NCBI RefSeq assembly: GCF_963921235.1
Contig: NC_086097.1
Location: 1,488,001 to 1,552,000, forward strand
Reading direction: 5' to 3'
Origin: Mobula hypostoma
Taxonomy: Eukaryota
DNA length: 64,000 nucleotides
Each line of letters opens with the position of its first letter. The stretch's first letter is position 1. The notes under the pieces were generated by a model that worked only from the letters and a program-made list of their open reading frames with translations, did no database searches and was not told where the DNA came from. The translations under genes and the position numbers were made by a program. Shown here one piece after another: positions 4,130 through 51,193 of the stretch.

Positions 4130-7100
4130 GATGGTGTGGTCACACCGGGGCCACGGCAGACAGACAGGTAGGTCACAGTCAGGAGGGGGTACGGCAAGAG
4201 AGTATCCCTGTGGCTGTACCCCTTGGCAGTAAGTACTCCTGTTTGAGTACTGTTGGGGGGAACGGCCTACCTGGGGGAAACAACTGTGGTCACACCCCTG
4301 GCACAGAGTCTGGCCCTGTGGCTCAGAAGGGTAGGGAAAGGAAGAGGAAGGCAGTAGTGATAAGGGACTCTATAGTTAGGGGGTCAGACAGGCGATTCTG
4401 TGGACGCAGGAAAGAAACTCAGATGGTAGTTTGCCTCCCAGATGCCAGGGTCCGGGATGTTTTTGGATCGCATCCAAGATATCCTGCAGTGGGAGGGAGA
4501 GCAGCCAGAGGTCGTGGTACATATTGATACCAATGACATAGGTAGCAAAAGGGAAGAGGTCCTGATAACAGACTACAGGGAGTTAGGAAGGAAGTTGAGA
4601 AGCAGGACCTCAAAGGTAGTAATCTCGGGATGACTGCCTGTGCCACACGACAGTGAGTATAGGAATGGAATGAGGTGGAGGATAAATGCGTGGCTGAGGG
4701 ATTGGAGCAGGGGGCAGGGATTCAGATTTCTGGATCTTTGGGACCTCTTTTGGAGCAGGTGTGACCTGTACAAAAAGGACGGGTTGCACTTGAATCCCAG
4801 GGGGACCAATATCCAGGCGGGGAGGTTTGCTAAGGCTACTGGGGAGAGTTTAAACTAGAATTGTTGGGGGGTGGGAACCGAACTGAAGTGACCGGGGAAG
4901 AGGCGGTTGGCTCACAAATAGAGAAAGTTTGGAGACAGTGTGTGAGGGAGGATAGGCAGGTGATAGAGAAGGGACGCGCCCAGACCGAAGGTTTGAGATG
5001 TGTCTATTTTAACACAGGGAGTATTGTGAACAAAGCAGATGAGCTTAGAGCATGGATCAGTACTTGGAGCTATGATCTTGTGGCCATTACAGAGACTTGG
5101 ATGGGTCAGGGACAGGAATGGTTACTACAAGTGCCGGGTTTTAGATGTTTCAGAAAGGACAGGGAGGGAGGCAAAAGAGGTGGGGGTGTGGCACTGTTGA
5201 TCAGAGATAATGTCACGGCTGCAGAAATGATGGATGCTATGGAGGGATTGTCTACAGAGTCTCTGTGGGTGGAGGTTAGGAACAGGAAGGGGTCAATAAC
5301 TTGGCTGGGTGTTTTTTATAGACCACCCAATAGTAACAGGGATATCGAGGAGCAGATAGGGAAACAGATCTTGGAAAGGTGTAATAATAACAGAGTTATC
5401 GTGATGGGAGATTTTAATTTCCCAAATATCGATTGGCATAGCCCTAGAGCAAGGGGTTTAGATGGAGTGGAGTTTGTTAGGTGTGTTCAGGAAGGTTTCT
5501 TGACACAATACAGTATGTAGATAAGCCTACAAGAGGAGAGACTGTACTTGATTTGATATTGGGAAATGAACCTGGTCAGGTGTCAGATCTCTCAGTGGGA
5601 GAGCATTTTGGAGATAGTGATCATAATTCTATCTCCTTTGCAATAGCATTGGAGACAGATAGGAACAGACAAATTAGAAAAGCGTTTAATTGATGTAAGG
5701 GGAATTATGAGGCTAACACGCAGGAAATTGGAAACTTAAATTGGAAACGGATGTTCTCAAGGGAAAGTACGGAAGAAATGTGGCAAATGTTCAGGAGATA
5801 TTTGCGTGGAGTTCTGCATAGGTACATTCCAATGAGACAGGGAAGTCGTGGTAGGGTATAGGAACTGTGCTGTACAAAGGCTGTAATAAATCTAGTCAAG
5901 AAAAGATAAGCTTACAAAAGTTCAGAGAGCTAGGTAATGTTAGAGATCTAGAAGATTATAAGACCATTAGGAAGTAGCTTAAAAAGGAAATTAGGATAGC
6001 CAGAAGGGGCCATGAGAAGGCCTTGGCACGCAAGATTAAGGAAAACCCCAACACATTCTTCAAGTATGTGAAGAGCAAGAGGATACGATGTGAAAGAATA
6101 GGACCTACCAAGTGTGACAGTGGGAGAGTGTGTATGGAACCAGAAGAAATAGCAGAAGTATTTAATGAATACTTTACTTCAGTGTTCACTATGGAAAAGG
6201 ATCTTGGTGATTGTAGTGATGACTTGCAGCACACTGAAAAACATGAGCCTGTAGATATTAAGAAAGAGGATGTGCTGGAGCTTTTGGAAAGCATCTAGAT
6301 GGATAAGTCGCCGGGACCGGATGAGATGTACACCAGGCTACTGTGGGAGGCGAGGGAGGAGATTGCTGAGCCACTGGCGATGATCTTTGCATCATCAATG
6401 GGACAGGAGAGGTTCCCGATGATTGGAGGGTTGCGAATGTTGTTCCTTTATTCAAGAAAGGCAGCAGAGATAGCCCAGGAAATTATAGACCAGTGAGTCT
6501 TACTTCAGTGGTCTGTAAGTTGATGGAGAAGATCCTGAGAGGCAGGATTTATGAACATTTAGAGAGGTATAATATAATTAGGAATAGTCAGCATGGCTTT
6601 GTCAAGGGCAGGTCGTGCCTTACGAGCCTGATTGAATTTTTTGAGGATGTGACTAAACACATTTATGAAGGAAGAGCAGTAGATGTAGTTTATATGAATA
6701 TCAGCAAGGCATTTGATAAGGTACCCCATCGAAGGCTTACTGAGAAAGTAAGGAGGCATGGAATCCAAGGGGACATTGCTTTGTGGATCCAGAACTGGCC
6801 TGCCCACAGAAGGCAAAGAGTGGTTGTAGATGGGTCATATTCTGCATGGAGGTTGGTCACTAGCGGAGTGCCTCAGGGATCTGTTCTGGGACCCTTACTC
6901 TTCGTGATTTTTATAAATGACCTGGATGAGGAAGTGGAGGGATGGGTTAGTAAATTTGCTGATGACACAAAGGTGGGGGTGTTGTGAATAGTGTGGAGGG
7001 CTGTCAGAGGTTACAGTGGGACATTGATAGGATGCAAAACTGGGCTGAGAAGCGACAGGTGGAGTTCTACCCAGATAAGTGTGAAGTGGTTCATTTTAGT

Positions 7101-7868
7101 AGGTCAAATGTGATGGCAGAATATAGTATTAATGGTAAGACTCTTGGCAGTGTGGAGGATCAGAGGGATCTTGGGGTCCGAGTCCATAGGACGCTCAAAC
7201 TGCTACGCAGGTTGACCCTGTGGTTAAGAAGGCGTACGGTGCATTGGCCTTCATTAGTCGTGGAATTGAATTTAGGACCTGAGAGGTAATGTTGCAGCTA
7301 TATAGAACCCTGGTCAGACCCCACTTGGAGTACTGTGCTCAGTTCTGGTCGCCTCACTACAGGAAGGATGTGGAAACTATAGAAAGGGTGCAGAGGAGAT
7401 TTACAAGGATGTTGCCTGGATTGGGAGCATGCCTTATGAAAACAGGTTGAGTGAACTCGGCCTTTTCTCCTTGGAGCGATGGAGGATGAGAGGTGACCTG
7501 GTAGAGGTGTATAAGATGATGAGAGACATTGATCGTGTGGATAGTCAGAGGCTATTTCCCAGGGCTGAAATGCTTGCCACAGGAGGACACAGGTTTAAGG
7601 TGCTGGGGAGTAGGTACAGAGGAGATGTCAGGGGTAAGTTTTTTACTCAGAGAGTGGTGAGTGCGTAGAATGGGCTGCCAGCAACGGTGGTGGATGCGGA
7701 TATGATAGGGTCTTTTAAGAGACTTGTGGATAGGTACAAAGGTACATGGAGCTTAGAAAAATAGAGGACTATGAGTAACCCTTGTAATTTCTGAGGTAGG
7801 GACATGTTCGGCACAACTTTGTGGGTCGAAGAGCCTCTATTGTGCTATAGGTTTTCTATGTTTTTATG
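4130..7868 (+). mobile_element. Near full-length decayed CR1 LINE: ORF1 (SGNH/GDSL esterase) plus ORF2 (APE+RT)
   Basis: ORF1 motifs VIRDSIVRG, VHIDTNDI, DGLHLN, stop at 4858; ORF2 pieces 4861-7668 ([33 protein letters not shown]); TTTCTATG tail near 7855. Confidence 0.93.
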
Positions 7869-8249
7869 CTGTGTGTATTCAAATATAGCACCTTCAGTCT
7901 TTATCAACCTTTTCGATTTTGTCTGCCTTTTAAAATTCAACTCGTCCTGTTGACTGCAATTTTGTCCTATCATCTGCCTGTCTTTCCTCATAGCCCTAGT
8001 ACACACTGCATCTGGTTGTACACCAGCCACCTCATTCTCAGCCCTCTCACTCCATTTCCCATCCTCTTTACTATTATGTCTAACAATTTCAATACTACCT
8101 GTCTGTGTTAATTCCACATCCCTGTACTGCCTGCATATTGAAGTACCTGCGTGTTGGGACGCACAGCACTGTAACTAACAGAGCTATGACCCACTGTCTC
8201 TTTTCACCAATGCTCACTGACCTGCTGTGTATCTCCAACTCTCTCTGTT

Positions 8250-20345: not shown

Positions 20346-22718
20346 AGAATATAGGGAGTTAGGAAGGGAGTTGTAAAAAAGGACGAAAAAGGTAGTAATC
20401 TCGGGATTACTGCCTGTGCTACGCGACAGTGAGAGTAGGAATGCAATGAGATGTAGGATAAATGTGTGGCTGAGAGATTGGAGCAAGGGGCAGGAATTCG
20501 GGTTTTTGGATCATTGGGACCACTGTTGGTACAGGTGTGACCTGTACAAAGGGGACGATTGCACTTGAATCCTAGGGGGACCAATATCCTGGCGGGCAGA
20601 TTTGCGAGGGCTACTAAGGTGACTTTAAACTAGAATGGTTGGGGGGGAGGGAATCAAATTAAGGAGACTAGGAGAGGGGAGGTTGATGCAAGGGAAAAAG
20701 AAGTAGAAGGTAACAAAGTTGTTTGCTCAATTAAGGATAAACAGAGAGTGGGAGGTAGAGTTTCTTAAATGCATCTATTTTAATGCTAGGAGCATTGTAA
20801 GAAAGGTGGATGAGCTTAGAGCATGGATTGATACCTGGAAATATGATGTTGTAGCTATTAGTGAAACGTGGTTGCAGGAGGGGTGTGATTGGCAACTAAA
20901 TATTCCAGGATTTCGTTGCTTCAGGTGTGATAGAATAGGAGGGGCAAGAGGGGGAGGTGTTGCATTGCTTGTCAGAGATTATATAACAGTGGTGCTCTGG
21001 CAGGATAGATTAGTGGACTCGTCTAGGGAGGCTATTTGGGTGGAATTGAGGAATAGGAAAGGTGTTGTGACGCTTATAGGGGTGTATTATAGACCACCTA
21101 ATGGGGACCGAGAACTGGAGGAGCAAATTTGTAAGGAGATAGCAGATATTTATAGTAAGCACAAGGTTGCAATTGTGGGAGATTTTAATTTTCCACACAT
21201 AGACTGGGAAGCCCATTCTGTAAAAGGGCTGGATGGTTTGGAGTTTGTAAAATGTGTGCAGGATAGTTTTTTAAAGCAATACATAGAGGTACCAACTAGA
21301 GAAGGGGCAGTGTTGGATCTCCTGTTAGGGAATGAGATAGGTCGGGTGACGGAGGTATTTGTTGGGGAGCACTTCGGGTCCAGTGATCACAATACAATTA
21401 GTTTCAGTGTAACTATGGAGAAGGATAGGACTGGACCTAGGATTGAGATTTTTGATTGGAGAAAGGCTAACTTTGAGGAGATGTGAAAGGATTTAGAAGG
21501 AGTGGATTGGAAAAATTTGTTTTATGGGAAGGATGTAACAGAGAAATGGAGGTCATTTAAAGGTGAAATTTTGAGGGTTCAGAATCTTTATGTTCCTGTT
21601 AGGTTGAAAGGAAAGGTTAAAAGTTTGAGAGAGCCATGGTTTTCAAGAGATATTAGAAACTTGGTTCAGAAAAAGAGAGAGATCTTCAATAAATATAGGC
21701 AGCTTGGAGTTAATGAGGTACTCGAGGAATATAAAGAATGTAAAAAGAATCTTAAGAAAGAAATTAGAAAAGCTAAAAGAAGATACGAGGCTGCTTCGGC
21801 AAGTAAGGTGAAAATAAATTCAAGGGGTTTCTACGGTTATGTTAGTGGCAAAAGGATAGTGAGGGATAAAATTGGTCCCTTGGAGAATCAGAGTGGACGG
21901 CTATGTGCGGAGCCAAAAGAGATGGGGGAGATTTTGAACTATTTCTTTTCTTCAGTATTCACTAAGGAGAAGGATATTGAATTGTGTAAGGTAAAGGAAA
22001 CAAGTAGGGTAGTTATAGAAAGTATGACAATTAAAGAAGAGGAAGTACTGACACTTTTAAGAAATATAAAAGTGGATAAGTCTCTGGGTCTGGACAAGAT
22101 ATTCCCTAGGACTTTGAAGAAAGTTAGTGTAGAAATAACAAGGGCTCTGACAGAAGTATTTCAAATGGCATTAGAAATGGGAATGGTGCCGGAGGATTGG
22201 CGTATTGCTCATGTTGTTCCATTGTTTAAAAAGGGTTCTAAGAGTAAACCTGGCAATTTTGTGAGTTTGACGTCAGTGGTGGGTAAATTGATGGAAAGTG
22301 TTCTTAGAGATGGTACACATAATTTTCTGGATAGACAGGGTCTGATTAGGAACAGTCGACATGGATTTGTGCGTGGAACGTCATGTTTGACAAATCTTAT
22401 TGAATTTTTTGATGAGGTTACTAAGAAAGTTGACGAGGGTAAAATGGTGGATCTTGTCTATATGGACTTCAGTAAGGCCTTTGACAAGGTTCCACATGGA
22501 AGGTTAGTTAGGGAGGTTCAATCATTAGGCATTAATATGGAAGTAGTAAAATGGATTCAGCAGTGGCTAGATGGGAGATGCCAGAGAGTAGTGGTGGATT
22601 ACTGTGTGTCAGATTGGAGGACGGTGTGTAGCAGTGTGCCTCAAGGATCTGTACTGGGTCCAATCTTGTTTGTAATATATATTAATGATCTAGATGATGG
22701 GGTGGTAAATTGGATTAG

Positions 22719-31565: not shown

Positions 31566-33804
31566 AGATATACAATTTCAAAATGAATAACAAAAGTTTT
31601 TCCAAATATAAAACATAGAACATAGAAAACCTACAGCACAATACAGGCCCTTTGGCCCACAAAGCTGTGCCGAACATGTCCTTATCTCAGAAATTACCTA
31701 GGGTTACCCATAGCCCTCTATTTTTCTAACTCCATGTACCTATCGAGGAGACTCTTGAAAAACCCTATTGTATTTGCCTCCACCACTGCTGCCGGCAGCC
31801 CATTCCATGCACTCACCACTCTCTGTGTGAAAAAACTTACCCCTGACATTTCCTCTGTACCTACTTCCAAGCAGCTTAAAACTGGGCCCTCTCGTGTTAG
31901 CCATTTCAGCCCTGGGAAAAAGCCTCTGACTATCCACACGATCAATGCCTCTCATCATCTTATACACCTCTATCAGGTCACCTCTCATCCTCTGTCACTC
32001 CAAGGAAAAAAGGCCAAGTTCACTCAAACTATTCTCATAAGGCATGCTCCCCGATCCGGGTAACATCCTTGTAAATCTCCTCTGCACCCTTAATATGGTT
32101 TCCACATCCTTCCTGTAGTGAGGCAACCAGAACTGAGCACAGTACTCCAAGTGGGGTCTGACCATGGTCCTAGATAGCTGTAACATTACCTCTCGGCTCT
32201 TAAACTCAATTCCACGATTAATGAAGACCAATACACCATATGCACTTCCTAACCACACAGTCAACCTGCGTAACAGCACTGAGTGTCCTATGGACTCAAA
32301 CCCCAAGATCCCTCTGATCCTCCACACTGCCAAGAGTCTTACCATTAGTATTATATTCTGCCATCATATTTAACCTACCAAAATGAACCACCTCACACTT
32401 ATCTGGGTTGAACTCCATCTGCCACTTCTCAACCCAGTTTTTCATCCTATCGCTGTCCTATTGTAACCTCTGACAGCCCTCCAGACTATTGACAACACCC
32501 CCAGCCTTTCTATCATCAGCAAATTGACTAACCCATCCCTCCACTTCCTCATCCAGACCATTTATAAAATCACAAACAGTAAGGGTCCCAGAACAGATCC
32601 CTGAGGCACAACATTGGTCACCAACCTCCATGCAGAATATGACCCATCTACAAGCACTCTTTGCCTTCTGTGGGCAGGCCAATTCTAGATCCACAAAGCA
32701 ATGCCCCCTTGGATCCCAAGCCTCCTTACTTTCTCAATAAGCCTTTGATTTAAGATTTCAGATGGCTTGCTGAAATCTATATACACTACATCTACTGCTG
32801 TACCCTCATCAATGTGTTTAGTCACATCCTCAAAAAATTCAATCAGGCTTGTCAGGCACGACCTGCCTTTGACAAAGCCATGCTGATTATTCCTAATCAT
32901 ATTATGTCTCTCCAAATGTTCATAAATCCTGCCTCTCAGGATCTTTTCCATCAACTTATCAACCACTGAAGTAAGGCTCACTGGTCTATAATTTCCTGGG
33001 CTATCTCTACTCCCTTTCTTGAATAAGGGAACAACATTCGCAACCCTCCAATCCTCTGGAACCTCTGCTGTCCCCATTGATGATGCAAAGATCATTGAAA
33101 GAGGCTCAGCAATCTCCTCCCTCACCTTCCACAGTAGCCTGGAGTACATCCCATCCGGTCCCGGTGACTTATCCAACTTGATGCTTTCCAAAAGCTCCAG
33201 CACATCCCCTTTCTTAATATCTACATGCTCAAGCCTTTCAGTATGCTGCAAGTCATCCCTGCAATTGCCAAGATCCTTTCCCATAATGAATACTGAAGCA
33301 AAGTATTCATTAAGTACCTCTGCTATCTCCTCTGGTTCCATACACACTTTTCCACTGTCACATTCGATTGGTCCTATTCTCTGAAGTCTCATCATCTTGC
33401 TCTTCACATACTTGTAGAATGCCTTGGGGTTTTCCTTAATCCTGCCCACCAAGGCCCTTTCTGGCTCTCCTAATTTCAGTCTTAAGCTCCTTCCAGCCAG
33501 CCTTATAACCTTCTCGATTCCTATCATTACCTAGTTTTTTGAACCTTTTGTAAGCTTTTCTTCTTGACTAGATTTACAACTGCCTTCTTACATCACGGTT
33601 CCTGTACCCTACCATCCTTTCCCCGTCTCATTGGAATGTACCTATGCAGAACTCCACGCAAATATCCCCTGAACATTTGCCACATTTCTTCCATACCTTT
33701 CCCTGAGAACATCTGTTCCCAAATTAAGCTTCCAAGTTCCTGCCTGATAGCCTCATATTTCCCCTTACTCCAGTTAAATGCTTTCCTAACTTGTCTGTTC
33801 CAAT

Positions 33805-37900: not shown

Positions 37901-38450
37901 ATTTGTCGGCCTGCCACTTTTACTTTTCTCCTTAGTACTTTTTGCTTCTACCCTCACTTTACACTCCTCTGTCTCTCTGCACTGGTTCCCATCCCCCTGT
38001 TGTGAACTAACCTCCTCACGCCTAGCCTCTTTAATTTGATTCCCACCCCCCAACCATTCTAGTTTAAAGTCACCTCAGTAGCCCTCGCTAATCTCCCTGC
38101 CAGGATATTGGTCCCCCTAGAATTCAAGTGTAACCTGTCCTTTTTGTACAGGTCACGCCTGCGCCAAAAGAGGTCCCAATGATCCAAAAACTTGAATCCC
38201 TGCCCCCTGCTCCAATCCCTCAGCCACGCATTTATCCTCCGCCTCATTGCATTCCTACTTTCACTGTCGCGTAGCACAGTCAGTAATCCCGAGATTACAA
38301 ACTTTGCTGTCCTTTTTCTCAACTCCCTTCCTAGCTCCCTATATTCTCCTTTCAGGACCTCATCCCTTTTCCTACCTATGTCATTGGTACCTATATGTAC
38401 CACGACCTCTGGCTCCTCACCCTCCCACTTCAGGATATCTTGGACACGAG
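34927..38450 (-). mobile_element. Young CR1 (ORF1 3' half plus ORF2 with one frameshift) inserted in the Gypsy RNase H C-terminus
   Basis: ORFs 38059..38403, 36608..38053, 35022..36584; (TTTCTATG)n tail; ATA shared at both junctions; the Gypsy frame ...QEYDILITHIKGKDNVIADCLSR rejoins across it. Confidence 0.95.
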
Positions 38451-43973: not shown

Positions 43974-45710
43974 CTATTCCTCTCCAATGTTATGGTAAAG
44001 GAGATAGAATTGTGATTACTGTCTCCAAAATGCTTTTCCACTAAGAGATCTGACACCTGACCAGGTTCATTTCCCAATTCCAGATCAAGTACAGCCTCTC
44101 CTCTTGTAGGCTTATCTACATACTGTGCCAAGAAACCTTCCTGAACACACCTAAACTCTACCCCATCTAAACACCTTGCTGTAGGGAGGTACCAATCAAT
44201 ATTTGGGAAATTAAAATCTCCCATCACGACAACCCTGTTATTATTACTCCTTTCCAGAATCTGTCTCCCTATCTGCTCCTTGATGTCCCTGTTACTACTG
44301 GGTGGTCCTGATCCACGCTCTAAGATCATCTTCTTTGTTCGTTATACTTCTTGCATTAAAATAGACACATTTCAGACCATCGATCTGAGCGCGTCCCTTC
44401 TCTATCACCTACCTATCCTCCCTCTCACACTGTCTACAGGCTTTCTGTATTAGTGAACCAATTGCCCATTCCTCCGTCTCTTCAGTTTGGTTCCCACCCC
44501 CCAACAATTCTAGTTTAAACTCTCCCCAGTAGCCTTAGCAAACCTCCCTGCCTGGATATTGGTCCCCCTGGGCTTCAAGTGCAACCTGTCCTTTTTGTAC
44601 AGGCCACACCTGCCCCAAAAGAGATCCCAATGATCCAGAAATCTGAATCCCTGCCCCCTGCTCCAATCCTTCAGCCACGCATTTATCCTCCACCTCACTA
44701 TATTCCTATACTCACTGTCATGTGGCACAGGCAGTAATCCCGAGACGACTACCTTTGAGGTCCTGCTTCTCAACTTCCTTCCGAACTGTCTGAAGTCTGT
44801 CTACAGGACCTCTTCCCTTTTCCTAGCTATGTCGTTGGTGCCAATATGTGCCACGACCTCTGGCTATTCTCCTTCGTACTTCAGGATATCGTGGACATGA
44901 TCTGAAACATCTCGGACCCTGGCACCTTGGAGGCAAACTACCATCCACGTTTCTTTCCTGCATCCACAGAATCACCTGTCTGAACCCCTAACTATAGAGT
45001 CCCCTATCACTACTGCCTTCTTCTTCCTTCCTCTACCCTTCTGAGCCGCAGGGCCAGACTCTGTGCCAGATGTGCGGCCACTGTTGCTTCCCCCAGGTAG
45101 GCCATCCCCCCCAACAGTACTCAGACAGGAGTACTTATTGTTCAGGGGGACAGCCATGGGGTACTCTCTAGCATCTGACTCTTGCCCTTCCCTCTCGTGA
45201 TTGTTACCCACTTACATGTCTCCCGAGGCCCCGGGGTGACTACCTGCATATAGCTCCTATCTATCATCTCCTCACTCTCTGACCAGCCAGAGGTCATCGA
45301 GCTGCATCTCCAGTTCCCTAATGCGGTTCCTCAGGAGCTGCTGCAGCTTGACGCACCTGGTGTAGATGTGGCCGCCGGGAGGCTGGGAGTCTTCAGGACT
45401 TCCCACATCTGACACTGAGCACAGAACAACGGCCTCACATACGTACTTCCTGTCTGTATTCTACACAGGCAACCTACCACGCCTTGACCCATTATCGCCA
45501 AAGCCCCGTTGAACCAAAGCCCTCCTACTCTGTCCCCCTCTACTTCGTCACCCGCTCCTCCTAAGCCTGCTCTATAAAACTGTTTCCTTTTAAACTCTTC
45601 TCACTGTTCAAACTGGCTGACGTCCACGCGTTTGCGCAGTCGTACCTCGATTAAATGCTGAAGAAATAACCGTCTCCTTTTAAACTCTCTTCACTGTTCT
45701 AACTGGCTGT

Positions 45711-49200: not shown

Positions 49201-51193
49201 CTTTTACAACTCTCTTAGCCCTTATACAATTATGTTGAAAAGTGGCCCTTTTTAATGCTTGCCCTGGATTTGTCGGCCTGCCACTTTTACTTTTCTCCTT
49301 AGTACTTTTTGCTTCTACCCTCACTTTACACCCCTCTGTCTCTCTGCACTGGTTCCCATCTCTCTGTTGTGAACTAACCTCCTCACGCCTAGCCTCTTTA
49401 ATTTGATTCCCACCCCCCAACCATTCTAGTTTAAAGTCACCTCAGTAGCCCCCGCTAATCTCCCTGCCAGAATATTGGTCCCCCTAGGATTCAAGTGTAA
49501 CCCGTCCTTTTTGTACAGGTCACGCCTGCGCCAAAAGAGGTCCCAATGATCCAAAAACTTGAATCCCTGCCCCCTGCTCCAATCCCTCAGCCACGCATTT
49601 ATCCTCCACCTCATCGCATTCCTACTCTCACTGTCGCGTGGCACAGGCAGTAATCCCGAGATTACAAACTTTGCGGTCCTTTTTCTCAACTCCCTTCCTA
49701 GCTCCCTATATTCTCCTTTCAGGACCTCATCCCTTTTCCTACCTATGTCATTGGTACCTATATGTACCACGACCTCTGGCTCCTCACCCTCCCACTTCAG
49801 GATATCTTGGACACGATCAGAAATATCCTGGACCCTGGCACCAGGGAGGCAAACTACCATCCGGGTCTCTGGATTTAGGAGCAGTAGTAGGCCATTTGGC
49901 CCATTGAGTCTGCTCTACCATTCAATCATGGGCTCATCCAATTCTTCCAGTCATCCCCACTCCCTGACTTCTCCCCATACCCTTTGATGCCATGGCTAAT
50001 CAAGAACCTATCTATCTCTGCCTTAAATACACCCAATGACTTGGCCTCCACAGCTGCTCGTGGCAGCAAATTCCATAGATTTACCACCCTCTGGCTAAAG
50101 TAATTTCTCCACAGTTCAGTTCAAAAAGGACGTCCTTCAAATCCTGAAGTCGTGCCCTCTTGTCCTAGAATCCCCTACCATGGGAAATAACTTTGTCATA
50201 TCTAATCTGTTCAGGCCTTTTAACATTCAGAATGTTTCTATGAAATTACCCCTCATTCTCCTGAATTCCAGGGAATACAGCCCAAGAGCTGCCAGACATT
50301 CCTCATATGGTAACCTTTTCATTCCTGGAATCATTCTCATGAAACTTCTCTGAACCCTCTCCAATGTCAGTATATCCTTTCTAAAATAAGGAGCCCAAAA
50401 CTGCACACAATACTCCGTGTGGCCTCACGAGTGCCTTATAGAGCCTCAACATCACATCCCTGCTCTTATATTCTATACCTCTAGAAATGAATGCCAACAT
50501 TACATTTGCCTTCTTCACAACTGAGTCAACCTGCAGGTTAACCTTTAGGGTATCTTGCACAAGGACTCCAAGTCCCTTTCCATCTCCGCATTTTGAATCA
50601 TCTCCTCATCTAAATAATAGTCTGCTTGTTTATTTCTTCCACCATTATATTTCATTTGCTACTTCTTTGCCCATTCCCCTAAACTATCTAAGTCTGTCTG
50701 CAGGCTCTCTGTTTCCTCAACACTACCCGCTCCTCCACCTATCTTTGTATCATTAGCAAATTTAGCCACAAATCCCTTAATGCCGTAGTCCAAATCATTG
50801 ACGTACATCGTAAAAAGCAACGGTCCTAACACCTATCCCTGTGGAACTCCACTGGTAACGAACAGCCAGCCAGAATAGGATCCTTTTATTCCCACTCCAC
50901 CCATGATAGTAACTTCCCTGGAATTCCATGGGATCTTATCTTGCTAACCAGCCTCATGTCCAGCACCTCGTCAAAGACCTTCAAAAAAATCCAAGCACAC
51001 CATACCTACTGCATCTCTTTTGTCTACCCTGCTTGTAATTTCATCAAAGAAGTACAGTAGGTTTCTCAGGCAGGATTTTCCTTTCAGGAAACCATGCTGG
51101 CTTTGGCCTATCTTGTCATGTGTCTCCAGGTACTCCATAATCTCATCCCTAAGGATTGATTCCAACAACTTCCCAACCACTGATGTCAGGCTA
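46286..51193 (-). mobile_element. 5'-truncated CR1 inserted in the satellite and itself split by a younger CR1
   Basis: Tail CATAAGACCATAAG at 46286; 3' UTR/RT resumes at 49872; GQSQHGFLKGKSCL at ~51100; similar to 16824-17799. Confidence 0.85.
46306..49871 (-). mobile_element. Young CR1, near-identical sibling of 34927-38450
   Basis: ORFs 49426..49860, 48260..49420, 47983..48267, 47549..47959, 46400..47452; 7-bp TSD GATTTAG (46299-305, 49872-78). Confidence 0.95.

Follow-up and report, generated by a model that had tools for sequence, protein, structure and literature searches.

The junction between ORF1 and ORF2 of a CR1 retrotransposon copy in Mobula hypostoma is probably a fossil programmed -1 ribosomal frameshift signal, inherited from an esterase-type CR1 family in which it would have yielded an ORF1-ORF2 fusion protein. 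ORF1 ends on the slippery heptamer T_TTA_AAC immediately before its stop codon, and ORF2 is open in the -1 frame across the junction without a usable AUG. The retention of this heptamer from sharks to crocodiles suggests that ribosomes slip back by one letter at the junction to make the copying enzyme; the signal appears to be ancient in esterase-type CR1 and not the property of one particular lineage.

The CR1 element and its ORF1/ORF2 junction

The element lies in a window of 64,000 nucleotides (the whole stretch of DNA that was analysed), and its features are collected in Table 1. By alignment of copies it extends to about position 7860-7900, and it displays the organization of the CR1 clade: an SGNH/GDSL esterase ORF1, recognized with a Pfam score below the gathering level, and an ORF2 with an APE endonuclease followed by a reverse transcriptase. 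The focal copy is a dead fossil, with both ORF1 and ORF2 broken away from the junction. ORF1 changes frame near 4440-4530 and carries a stop at 4631-4633, where position 4632 is T rather than G in ~99.7% of the depth of public-run contigs; its last stretch, 4634-4855, shares the frame of the terminal TAG. This 74-aa fragment matches Pfam Lipase_GDSL_2 with an E-value of 6e-07 and 30.6 bits, under the 32.9-bit cut-off, and full-length ORF1 homologues of 268-352 aa carry PF13472. The ORF2 frame of the focal copy breaks at 5518-5520. Of the published consensuses accessible to us, the nearest by eye is HypSab_CR1-13, which was named CR1 by its authors.

Table 1. Features of the focal CR1 element and of further junction copies in the window
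Feature	Position	Strand	Remarks
ORF1 remnant, SGNH/GDSL esterase type	4210..4858	+	Three-frame translation; Pfam
TAA stop of the -1 (ORF2) frame	4831..4833	+	Confines the ORF1/ORF2 overlap to 8 codons
Slippery heptamer T_TTA_AAC	4849..4855	+	In ORF1 frame; invariant in 5/5 window copies
ORF1 stop TAG	4856..4858	+	Immediately 3' of the heptamer
ORF2 5' part in the -1 frame	4859..5520	+	ATG-free linker, then APE endonuclease; Pfam Exo_endo_phos, E 3.1e-16
G-rich tract GGGGGGTGGGAA	4866..4877	+	Begins 10 nt past the heptamer; similar tract and spacing in consensuses of other species
Bulged hairpin of the initial annotation	4871..4915	+	Arms 4871-80 and 4904-15; drawable but unsupported
ORF2 reverse transcriptase segment	6400..6984	+	Pfam RVT_1, E 4.1e-27
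Junction motif, more diverged degraded copy	20624..20646	+	Additional G in the G run; ORF2 not at -1
Junction motif, subfamily-B copy	38046..38068	-	ORF2 at -1; -1-frame stop 3 codons before the heptamer
Junction motif, second subfamily-A copy	44497..44519	-	ORF2 at -1
Junction motif, second subfamily-B copy	49413..49435	-	ORF2 at -1

Three-frame translation reads the end of ORF1 as AGT (4847-4849), TTA (4850-4852), AAC (4853-4855) and TAG (4856-4858); in the -1 frame the same letters read TTT AAA CTA GAA TTG TTG GGG, and in the focal copy this frame is open from 4834 to 5517. Translation also bore out what the initial annotation had said of the geometry, namely a T_TTA_AAC in the ORF1 frame directly ahead of the TAG, an ORF2 open in the -1 frame across the junction, and a first ORF2 AUG located inside the endonuclease with a TTG as the listed start. 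That ATG is found at 5101-5103, 84 codons past the heptamer and 3' of the endonuclease ITETW motif with its catalytic Glu; the TTG, at 4861, is the start given in the list of open reading frames. As expected of a eukaryotic -1 frameshift site, an X_XXY_YYZ heptamer stands in phase with the upstream ORF, and the downstream ORF is at -1, open over the site and without a start of its own. The G-rich tract 3' of the stop encodes Gly-Gly-Gly-Asn in the ORF2 frame and is a candidate stimulator or linker.

The presence of a slippery heptamer at the focal junction exceeds chance expectation. The interval from the -1-frame stop to the ORF1 stop offers only 6 in-phase positions, and ~24 of 16384 heptamers are canonical, which by our own arithmetic gives a chance expectation of ~1% for one family. 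Given x-Leu-Asn, xxT TTA AAC would be expected at ~1.2% from the element's own codon usage (TTA in 15 of 116 Leu codons, AAC in 21 of 64 Asn codons, and T in the third position of 376 of 1383 codons); TTA and AAC each represent a minority of the codons for their amino acid in the focal element.

Proposed frameshift mechanism

When ribosomes finishing ORF1 arrive at U_UUA_AAC, their P site would be occupied by tRNA-Leu and their A site by tRNA-Asn; a minority would slip one base back to UUU_AAA and read CUA next, thereby bypassing the UAG and entering the APE-RT frame by way of a linker that is rich in Gly and lacks Met. The predicted fusion of ORF1p and ORF2p would read ...GESLN followed by the -1-frame residues LELLGGGN..., and ribosomes that do not slip would terminate, leaving an excess of free ORF1p in the style of retroviral Gag and Gag-Pol. 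In a possible variant with the same product, tRNA-Asn would already be in the P site when it slips from AAC to AAA, with the stop waiting in the A site. From the sequence we infer the slippage itself, its efficiency, and the stimulator roles of the stop and the G-rich tract.

Copies in the window and in public contigs

A 23-nt junction motif is present in all five junction copies of the window, for which shuffles predict 0 occurrences, and four of the five have ORF2 at -1 with respect to the end of ORF1; the heptamer junction with a -1 ORF2 is a feature of the CR1 family and not of a single copy. The ORF2 open frame starts just 3-5 codons before the heptamer in the window copies, and the room for the shift is limited to 8 codons in subfamily A and to about 15 nt in subfamily B. 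No ATG is found near the ORF1 stop in any of the five copies, and about 100 codons of both subfamily-B copies are free of an in-frame ATG. Conservation within the window alone shows no special constraint on the junction, which does not surpass the neighbouring ORF1 coding sequence in this respect; the longest invariant run at the junction is 13 nt (4849-4861), compared to 14 nt in ORF1 (4799-4812).

Contigs aligned at 80% likeness numbered 41702, 1923 and 2551 in three public runs; a raw-read DNA run, X23, yielded just 2 reads and was uninformative. A rare deletion of 1 nt at 4893 makes up the sole indel row from the three runs across 4560-5160, the 40 variant rows shown include none in 4849-4863, and a common indel at the junction is absent from these thousands of contigs. 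A T>C change at 4864 accounts for 84% of the depth in X1 and is synonymous in the ORF2 frame. The 23-nt junction motif had 0 matches in metagenome contigs.

Junctions in published CR1 consensuses

The consensus table of PMC13343379, in its accessible part, was examined over the first ~400 nt of every entry, and the counts in this section refer to that text. TTTAAAC followed by TAG has 12 matches, 10 of which are esterase/ORF2 junctions; with TAA there are 8 matches (6 junctions) and with TGA 3 matches (1 junction). The resulting 17 junction-type consensuses come from 12 species, and the hosts of TTTAAAC plus stop are chimaera, sharks, rays, bowfin, coelacanth, frog, lizard, alligator and crocodile. 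Where rows are instead located by the DGLHL-coding motif, all seven with sufficient downstream text have TTTAAAC and a stop.

The heptamer is conserved in these relatives beyond the need of the protein, that is, at protein-neutral positions as well. Replacing the first T by A, C or G as a control gives 5 matches and 0 junctions; synonymous Leu or Asn codons followed by TAG give 14 matches and 0 junctions. The codon preceding TTA is GCT, CTT, TGT, GAT, GGT, AGT or ACT, and the third base is always T across these seven amino acids. No clear junction turned up in the same text for GGGAAAC or AAAAAAC followed by a stop. ScyCan_CR1-13 has TTTAAAC with no stop after it. HypSab_CR1-13 lacks the TA of the stop, which was judged an artefact because many other columns of that entry are dropped and no such deletion occurs among the contigs.

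Tracing the -1 frame by hand in individual consensuses gave both outcomes: in ScyCan_CR1-1a and SquAca_CR1-6c it continues from TTT AAA to the endonuclease without a stop, and it closes before the endonuclease in seven consensuses (AllMis_CR1-1b, AllMis_CR1-6a, CalMil_CR1-1b, ScyCan_CR1-14, SquAca_CR1-17a, SquAca_CR1-22 and PogVit_CR1-2). In AllMis_CR1-1b another frame encodes the endonuclease, and an ATG in it precedes the endonuclease motif by 5 codons; upstream of the heptamer, three crocodilian consensuses have a spacing 1 nt less than that of two others. The crocodilian consensuses neither support nor refute the frameshift model, since many of their letters are of low confidence and their ORF1 frames are internally inconsistent.

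A heptamer that is a functionless coincidence in a decayed repeat would be in keeping with a focal copy that is a pseudogene, and with a junction that in the window is no better conserved than the flanking coding sequence. Such a coincidence is nevertheless very improbable; the ~1% expected for one family stands against the junction-type consensuses counted above, and the pattern survived its controls.

Codons after the ORF1 stop

The initial annotation held that a conserved in-frame AUG before the APE domain would speak against frameshifting, and the accessible consensuses show no conserved start codon. The codon after the stop differs among lineages (Met, Val, Glu, Gly, Ile, Asp or Ser); UAAUG, in which an ORF2-frame AUG overlaps the stop, occurs in three shark consensuses only (ScyCan_CR1-1a, SquAca_CR1-6c and SquAca_CR1-17a), and GUG is the codon after the stop in CalMil_CR1-1b and ScyCan_CR1-14.

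These codons bear on termination-reinitiation, in which every ribosome would end translation at the stop of ORF1 and some would resume nearby in the ORF2 frame, at the AUG where one overlaps the stop and elsewhere at a non-AUG codon such as the CUG or UUG at 4861-4866, the heptamer being conserved for another reason. Reinitiation, described for ORF2 of silkworm SART1 and human L1, is the main rival and a live one because some shark lineages have UAAUG, a stop/start of the SART1 type, and the GUG codons after the stop may be read in the same way; it is also the mechanism given for LINE ORF2 in the accessible text of PMC2881922, PMC3708506 and PMC3894237. Further points in keeping with it are that the stop is always right at the junction, that 4864 is C in most copies of the focal family, creating a CUG 5 nt past the stop, and that no frameshift-stimulating structure was found. 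We consider it unlikely all the same, as it leaves unexplained why U_UUA_AAC is kept at protein-neutral positions and in the exact ORF1 phase at every junction seen; it does not predict a constant -1 ORF2, and its start codon is not conserved, given the variation after the stop in the accessible consensuses. The five window copies have no ATG at or near the upstream stop. Ribosomes are retained by a downstream structure in SART1 and by an rRNA-complementary motif upstream in caliciviruses; folding gave no downstream structure at the CR1 junction, and no upstream tethering motif was identified by unsystematic inspection.

C-termini of ORF1 proteins

Complete ORF1p C-termini end in LN in all four near matches and in 28 of the 30 longer matches. 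A wider sample consists of 86 cluster representatives, defined as proteins from the profile search that end 20-45 aa past the esterase DGxHL motif; their C-terminal dipeptide is LN in 43, GN in 10 (QGN in 9 of these), KN in 1 and another pair in 32. LN, GN and KN all lie within the coding capacity of an X_XXA_AAC heptamer, as does Pro-Asn, which was not seen among the representatives. The residue preceding LN could be specified by a U-ending codon in 42 of the 43 LN representatives, one of which comes from a snake, and the residue preceding GN could be specified by a G-ending codon in all 10 of the GN class. One ORF1p ends in EELN, and Glu codons cannot end in U. A DNA search for the QGN class in the metagenome returned one weak locus, L001, with 45% identity over 38 residues on a contig that stops before the C-terminus; a search of genome and viral contigs with the ORF1 profile gave no matches. 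An esterase-APE-RT fusion protein was found in 0 of the 32 longer protein matches, and gene callers would not predict one.

The conservation of Leu-Asn at the protein level is also in keeping with another role for the conserved block of ORF1 end, stop and G tract, such as an RNA binding or packaging site or a need of the ORF1 C-terminus, with ORF2 translated by an unrelated route such as internal entry or a subgenomic transcript. The G-rich tract, found at a fixed spacing in several lineages of the accessible consensuses, is unlike any known frameshift stimulator, and a specific RNA site would be plausible because esterase-type ORF1 proteins are described in the accessible text of PMC3905857 as having no structural RNA-binding domain, with the way they join the RNP left open there. 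Against such a role, a protein-level need would permit synonymous codons, and these occur at none of the junctions in the accessible consensuses (0 junctions among 14 matches); the role also leaves unexplained the combination of a top-efficiency heptamer, the right phase, a -1 ORF2 and the absence of an AUG. Moreover, the opening of the ORF2 frame so shortly before the heptamer fits entry from ORF1 over independent entry, and we regard the other-role reading as improbable.

Downstream RNA structure

A bulged hairpin 3' of the stop had been put forward as the stimulator by the initial annotation; it is supported by neither folding nor covariation. In the five window copies 82% of the cells of its arms pair, compared to 25-46% in slid controls, for a hairpin that was derived from one copy; compensatory changes occur in 0 of 10 pairs, and the G4880-C4904 pair is lost in four of the five copies. 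Among the contigs, G>A at 4880 and C>A at 4904 are similarly frequent and together would give A-A. RNAalifold gave -3.06 kcal/mol and 0 covarying pairs; folding after the heptamer is no better than that of shuffles (z of -0.27 to +0.82 for five stretches in four window copies). There is no Rfam match, and a simple search of the focal copy for same-strand sequence complementary to the G tract yielded none. A classical stimulator is considered to be missing, since there is no stable or covarying structure, no Rfam match and no same-strand complement of the G tract; folding, covariation and the Rfam search gave no stimulatory hairpin or pseudoknot about 5-9 nt downstream.

The feature conserved 3' of the heptamer is the G-rich tract, which is found 6-10 nt downstream in the accessible consensuses of several lineages. 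As a G-quadruplex this tract was rejected by eye, the required four G3 tracts with short loops being absent in the focal copy and generally; calicivirus-type rRNA tethering by UGGGA within the tract was considered unlikely because the motif is downstream of the stop. With the consensus heptamer and stop, the T in the third base, Leu-Asn and the family-wide -1 offset, a frameshift fusing the esterase to APE-RT is the best-supported reading of the junction, as initially proposed; its restriction to a single CR1 lineage did not hold, the signal being found across vertebrate CR1 with the G-rich tract in place of the hairpin.

Comparison with known systems

We know of no non-LTR element that uses -1 frameshifting for ORF2. 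U_UUA_AAC is the -1 frameshift site of coronavirus ORF1a/1b, where it acts together with a pseudoknot; the CR1 junction has the identical heptamer in the identical phase, with a replicase-type enzyme at -1, however it differs in having no pseudoknot or stable hairpin, in the adjacent zero-frame stop and in belonging to a nuclear non-LTR retrotransposon. In luteovirus and dianthovirus sites (e.g. barley yellow dwarf virus) a shifty heptamer is followed directly by the zero-frame stop, and these viruses use an adjacent structure and long-distance pairing to a 3' region. The adjacency of heptamer and stop is alike in CR1, whereas a long-range complement was not found within the focal copy. Protein-stimulated frameshifting in arteriviruses and cardioviruses relies on an element that is linear or small and lies about 10-13 nt downstream, with no pseudoknot; the CR1 tract at +6 to +10 is G-rich and not C-rich, and the resemblance may be taken as an analogy only.

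The frameshift model resembles the gag-pol of retroviruses and LTR elements in that an abundant structural or accessory protein from the upstream ORF and a rare RT fusion would be made in a ratio set by slippage; in contrast, the CR1 ORF1 is an SGNH esterase and not a Gag, and there is no protease to cut the fusion. SART1 and human L1 are, like CR1, bicistronic LINE RNAs in which ORF2 adjoins the ORF1 stop, and some shark CR1 share the UAAUG; however, most CR1 junctions in the accessible consensuses have no AUG and instead carry an in-phase slippery heptamer before the stop, which is absent from SART1 and L1 in the sources at hand. In its accessible text the 2016 review PMC5009743 contains UUUAAAC 3 times, names HeT-A gag as the sole non-LTR frameshift and states that L1 ORF2 does not require its AUG. 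The translation of LINE ORF2 from a bicistronic RNA is described as unclear in the accessible text of PMC3894237 and PMC3708506. A literature search, with Haas 1997, Kajikawa 1997, Kapitonov and Jurka 2003 and Kojima 2005 outside its coverage, returned no report of frameshifting at the CR1 junction.

Implications for CR1 retrotransposons

A broader model is put forward tentatively and may well prove too general: all jawed-vertebrate esterase-type CR1, and perhaps further CR1-group lineages, would express ORF2 only as an ORF1p-ORF2p fusion, through a -1 shift on X_XXA_AAC right before the stop. The heptamer would mostly be U_UUA_AAC, with G_GGA_AAC predicted where ORF1 ends in Gln-Gly-Asn; stimulation would come from the adjacent stop and a G-rich tract at fixed distance, possibly read by a protein, with no pseudoknot. 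The fusion would tether an ORF1p that has no RNA-binding domain to the reverse transcriptase and its template, explaining RNP assembly and cis-preference.

CR1 is the dominant retrotransposon in most vertebrate species, according to the accessible text of PMC13343379. If the frameshift reading is true, CR1 would gain a defined and easily testable mechanism of ORF2 expression, and the annotation of CR1 ORF2 would change because gene callers begin it at an internal ATG or TTG; the junction would represent a widespread class of vertebrate frameshift signals with no classical RNA stimulator, and would hint at how esterase-type ORF1 proteins enter the RNP.

Frame organization of the focal junction

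The focal element is a decayed copy of a CR1-type LINE; its esterase ORF1 has undergone a frame change and acquired a stop, and its ORF2 is broken upstream of the RVT_1 domain. The closest published consensus, judged by eye, is a stingray entry labelled CR1, and the best named protein match to the ORF1 end is an uncharacterised ray protein of 97% identity. CR1 fragments are dense on both strands across 500-50000 of the window, where the element has at least 17 further blastn matches, many of them 5'-truncated.

The frame encoding the C-terminal part of the SGNH esterase ends AGT TTA AAC TAG. T_TTA_AAC accordingly fits the canonical X_XXY_YYZ pattern in ORF1 phase, immediately upstream of the stop codon. 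At the junction the sequence in the -1 frame is TTT AAA CTA GAA TTG TTG GGG, and this frame encodes the APE endonuclease (Exo_endo_phos, E 3.1e-16); its first in-frame ATG follows the ITETW motif, so an AUG-initiated product cannot contain the whole endonuclease. The initial annotation had described an in-phase heptamer adjoining a stop, an ORF2 open in the -1 frame across the junction and a first AUG within the endonuclease domain, all of which are borne out by these readings.

Coordinates of features in the window
Feature	Position	Strand	Remark
Focal CR1 element	~4136-7900	+	decayed copy
ORF1 frame change	near 4440-4530	+
ORF1 stop	4631-4633	+
TAA closing the -1 frame upstream	4831-4833	+
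-1 frame without stop	4834-5517	+
ORF1 end	4847-4858	+	AGT TTA AAC TAG
Heptamer	4849-4855	+	T_TTA_AAC
T>C variant	4864	+	84% of depth in X1, a public sequencing run
G tract	4866-4877	+
Proposed hairpin arms	4871-4880, 4904-4915	+
Rare 1-nt deletion	4893	+
First in-frame ATG of ORF2	5101-5103	+	just past ITETW
ORF2 break	5518-5520	+
RVT_1	6400-6984	+
Diverged junction copy	20624-20646	+
G run of diverged copy	20641-20647	+	7 G, vs 6 in other copies
Further blastn match	31619-33804		2.2 kb, 87% identity to focal element
Second G-tract motif, subfamily B	37986-37997	-	GGGGGATGGGAA
Junction copy, subfamily B	38046-38068	-
Junction copy, subfamily A	44497-44519	-
Junction copy, subfamily B	49413-49435	-

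The 23-nt junction motif occurs five times in the window against 0 expected from shuffles, and the copies comprise two subfamilies at about 86% identity and one more diverged copy. Relative to the end of ORF1, four of the five have their endonuclease in the -1 frame; the sole exception is the diverged copy, which contains several indels including an extra G. Both subfamily-B copies have a -1-frame stop three codons upstream of the heptamer, and from this stop to the endonuclease the frame runs for ~100 codons without Met. The second G tract in subfamily B lies ~55 nt downstream of the first and suggests an insertion or partial duplication within the ORF2 linker; its spelling is that of the G tract directly after the junction in the available text of the sawfish and catshark consensuses.

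Over 4560-5160 the focal junction was compared at 80% likeness with contigs from three public runs (41702, 1923 and 2551 contigs) and with raw reads from a fourth (2 reads). Among the variants listed the only indel is the rare 1-nt deletion, and 4849-4863 is free of variants among the 40 listed from the three-run contigs (134 further variants exist); the T>C change converts TTG to CTG, synonymous in the ORF2 frame. The -1 relation therefore belongs to the family as a whole rather than being an accident of the focal copy. No special constraint is evident within the window, the invariant run being 13 nt at the junction and 14 nt in the neighbouring esterase CDS.

Conservation in vertebrate CR1 consensuses

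The CR1-group consensuses of Supplementary Table 2 of PMC13343379 were compared over the first ~400 nt of each entry, so that the junction is visible in 5'-truncated consensuses only.

Junction motifs in the first ~400 nt of CR1-group consensuses
Motif	Matches	Esterase/ORF2 junctions
TTTAAAC+TAG	12	10
TTTAAAC+TAA	8	6
TTTAAAC+TGA	3	1
Control: A, C or G replacing first T	5	0
Control: synonymous Leu or Asn codons + TAG	14	0

The junction rows derive from chimaera, three sharks and rays, sawfish, bowfin, coelacanth, bullfrog, lizard, alligator and crocodile; when the DGLHL-coding sequence is used as the anchor instead, TTTAAAC and a stop follow 48-70 nt on in 7/7 rows with enough downstream text. 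The codon preceding TTA in these entries is GCT, CTT, TGT, GAT, GGT, AGT or ACT, its third base T being constant while the encoded residue varies; across the CR1 coding segments of the window (1383 codons), T occupies 27% of third positions, TTA accounts for 13% of Leu and AAC for 33% of Asn. The short overlap offers six in-phase heptamer positions and ~24/16384 heptamers are canonical, a chance expectation of ~1%; a chance origin of the heptamer is considered very unlikely.

Downstream of the heptamer the consensus text also shows a G-rich tract, GGGGG-N-GGG in form. Its start lies exactly 10 nt on in sawfish, catshark, alligator and one crocodile family, as in the focal family, and 6-9 nt on in frog, lizard, dogfish and coelacanth; the bases in between vary freely. 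The dogfish entries SquAca_CR1-3 and SquAca_CR1-18 of the same supplement carry GGTTTAAACTA then GCGGGAAAC in the 5' untranslated region, far from the ORF junctions.

The consensus frames were traced by eye within the same text. In ScyCan_CR1-1a and SquAca_CR1-6c no stop interrupts the -1 frame between the heptamer and the endonuclease, and in PriPec_CR1-7 and CroPor_CR1-3a none interrupts it before the end of the ~400 nt; early closure is seen in seven entries (AllMis_CR1-1b, AllMis_CR1-6a, CalMil_CR1-1b, ScyCan_CR1-14, SquAca_CR1-17a, SquAca_CR1-22 and PogVit_CR1-2). AllMis_CR1-1b has its endonuclease in another frame, with an ATG five codons upstream of it. Low-confidence letters are numerous in the consensuses and the ORF1 frames lack internal consistency, and for these reasons the entries do not settle the amniote frame relation. 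The distance from a conserved upstream motif to the heptamer is 19 nt in three crocodilian consensuses and 20 nt in two; the ...RRALN terminus shared by a snake ORF1 protein and numerous unnamed representatives falls exactly 26 residues past DGLHL, as it does in rays, which favours the 20-nt version. In ScyCan_CR1-13 the TTTAAAC has no stop after it and the ORF1 frame continues for 53 codons into endonuclease-like sequence, with GGGAAAC+TAG located another 20 nt on; a natural in-frame fusion and a consensus error are the two readings of this entry.

C-termini of ORF1 proteins

Word-seeded searches with the last 112 ORF1 residues gave 9 near-length and 32 longer matches, with rays, skates and sharks as the main sources. 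Where the C-terminus is complete it is Leu-Asn in 4/4 near-length and 28/30 longer matches, the exceptions being ...TIN and ...NLNLNG; one protein of the LN type ends EELN. When 1.84 billion representatives were searched with a profile, the 150 matches listed included 90 with the esterase DGxHL motif and 86 ending 20-45 residues past it; of the latter, 43 end in LN, 10 in GN (9 of them QGN), 1 in KN and 32 otherwise. An X_XXA_AAC heptamer can encode four dipeptides, of which LN, GN and KN are observed; the fourth, Pro-Asn, is absent among the 86. The residue preceding LN is compatible with a U-ending codon in 42/43 and that preceding GN (Gln or Ala) with a G-ending codon in 10/10, a pattern that fits the heptamer rule, though the classes probably represent few clades. 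The QGN class (P0083, P0093, P0098, P0100, P0103, P0104, P0106, P0153, P0154 and P0187, one ending Ala-Gly-Asn) is seen here at the protein level; if encoded CAG GGA AAC it would carry the slippery heptamer G_GGA_AAC.

P0006, a UniRef entry labelled as a Proteus mirabilis SGNH hydrolase, evidently represents part of a CR1 ORF1 from a shark or ray and is thus probably contamination; past the junction its sequence follows the -1 frame (...FKLIWQGDG...). P0024 and P0041, host gene models annotated as 40S ribosomal protein S24 isoform X2 (sawfish) and a V-set immunoglobulin protein (ray), each include an esterase segment from CR1 ORF1; both are likely chimeric annotations.

RNA structure downstream of the heptamer

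The hairpin initially put forward as a possible stimulator is not upheld: 82% of its cells pair across the five window copies against 25-46% for slid controls, with no compensatory changes among them and one pair absent in 4/5. The consensus fold of the downstream region reaches -3.06 kcal/mol with no covariation, and five post-heptamer stretches from four window copies fold no better than shuffles. The region is purine-rich, and no complement of the G tract was found on the element's own strand. An Rfam search gave no match.

Expression of ORF2

The open literature searched, to which any claim of novelty is confined, contained no description of frameshifting at the ORF1/ORF2 junction of CR1 or of any other LINE. 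In the portions available, the recoding review PMC5009743 mentions the HeT-A gag frameshift as the sole one among non-LTR elements and treats L1 ORF2 as being initiated in a novel way, PMC3894237 and PMC3708506 describe the initiation of LINE ORF2 as unresolved, and PMC13343379 and PMC4120745 describe CR1 ORF1 diversity with no mention of the junction. The main rival explanation is termination-reinitiation independent of AUG, the route described for L1 and SART1; the presence of UAAUG in three shark consensuses (within the text available) and a stop that invariably adjoins the junction speak for it, but this model gives no reason for the heptamer. A further alternative gives the junction block some other RNA or protein function.

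The most economical account is a -1 ribosomal frameshift with an ORF1p-ORF2p fusion as its product; it is preferred because of the exact heptamer, its phase and its conservation at protein-neutral positions, and because the -1 ORF2 has no usable AUG and the ORF overlap is very short. The lack of a classical stimulator is not fatal to this account since low efficiency would suffice for a LINE; candidates for a stimulatory role are the adjoining stop and the G tract. The site in the focal copy is a fossil, and any function would be that of active family members, in which the main product would be free ORF1p and ribosomes slipping -1 at the heptamer would produce the ORF1p-ORF2p fusion.
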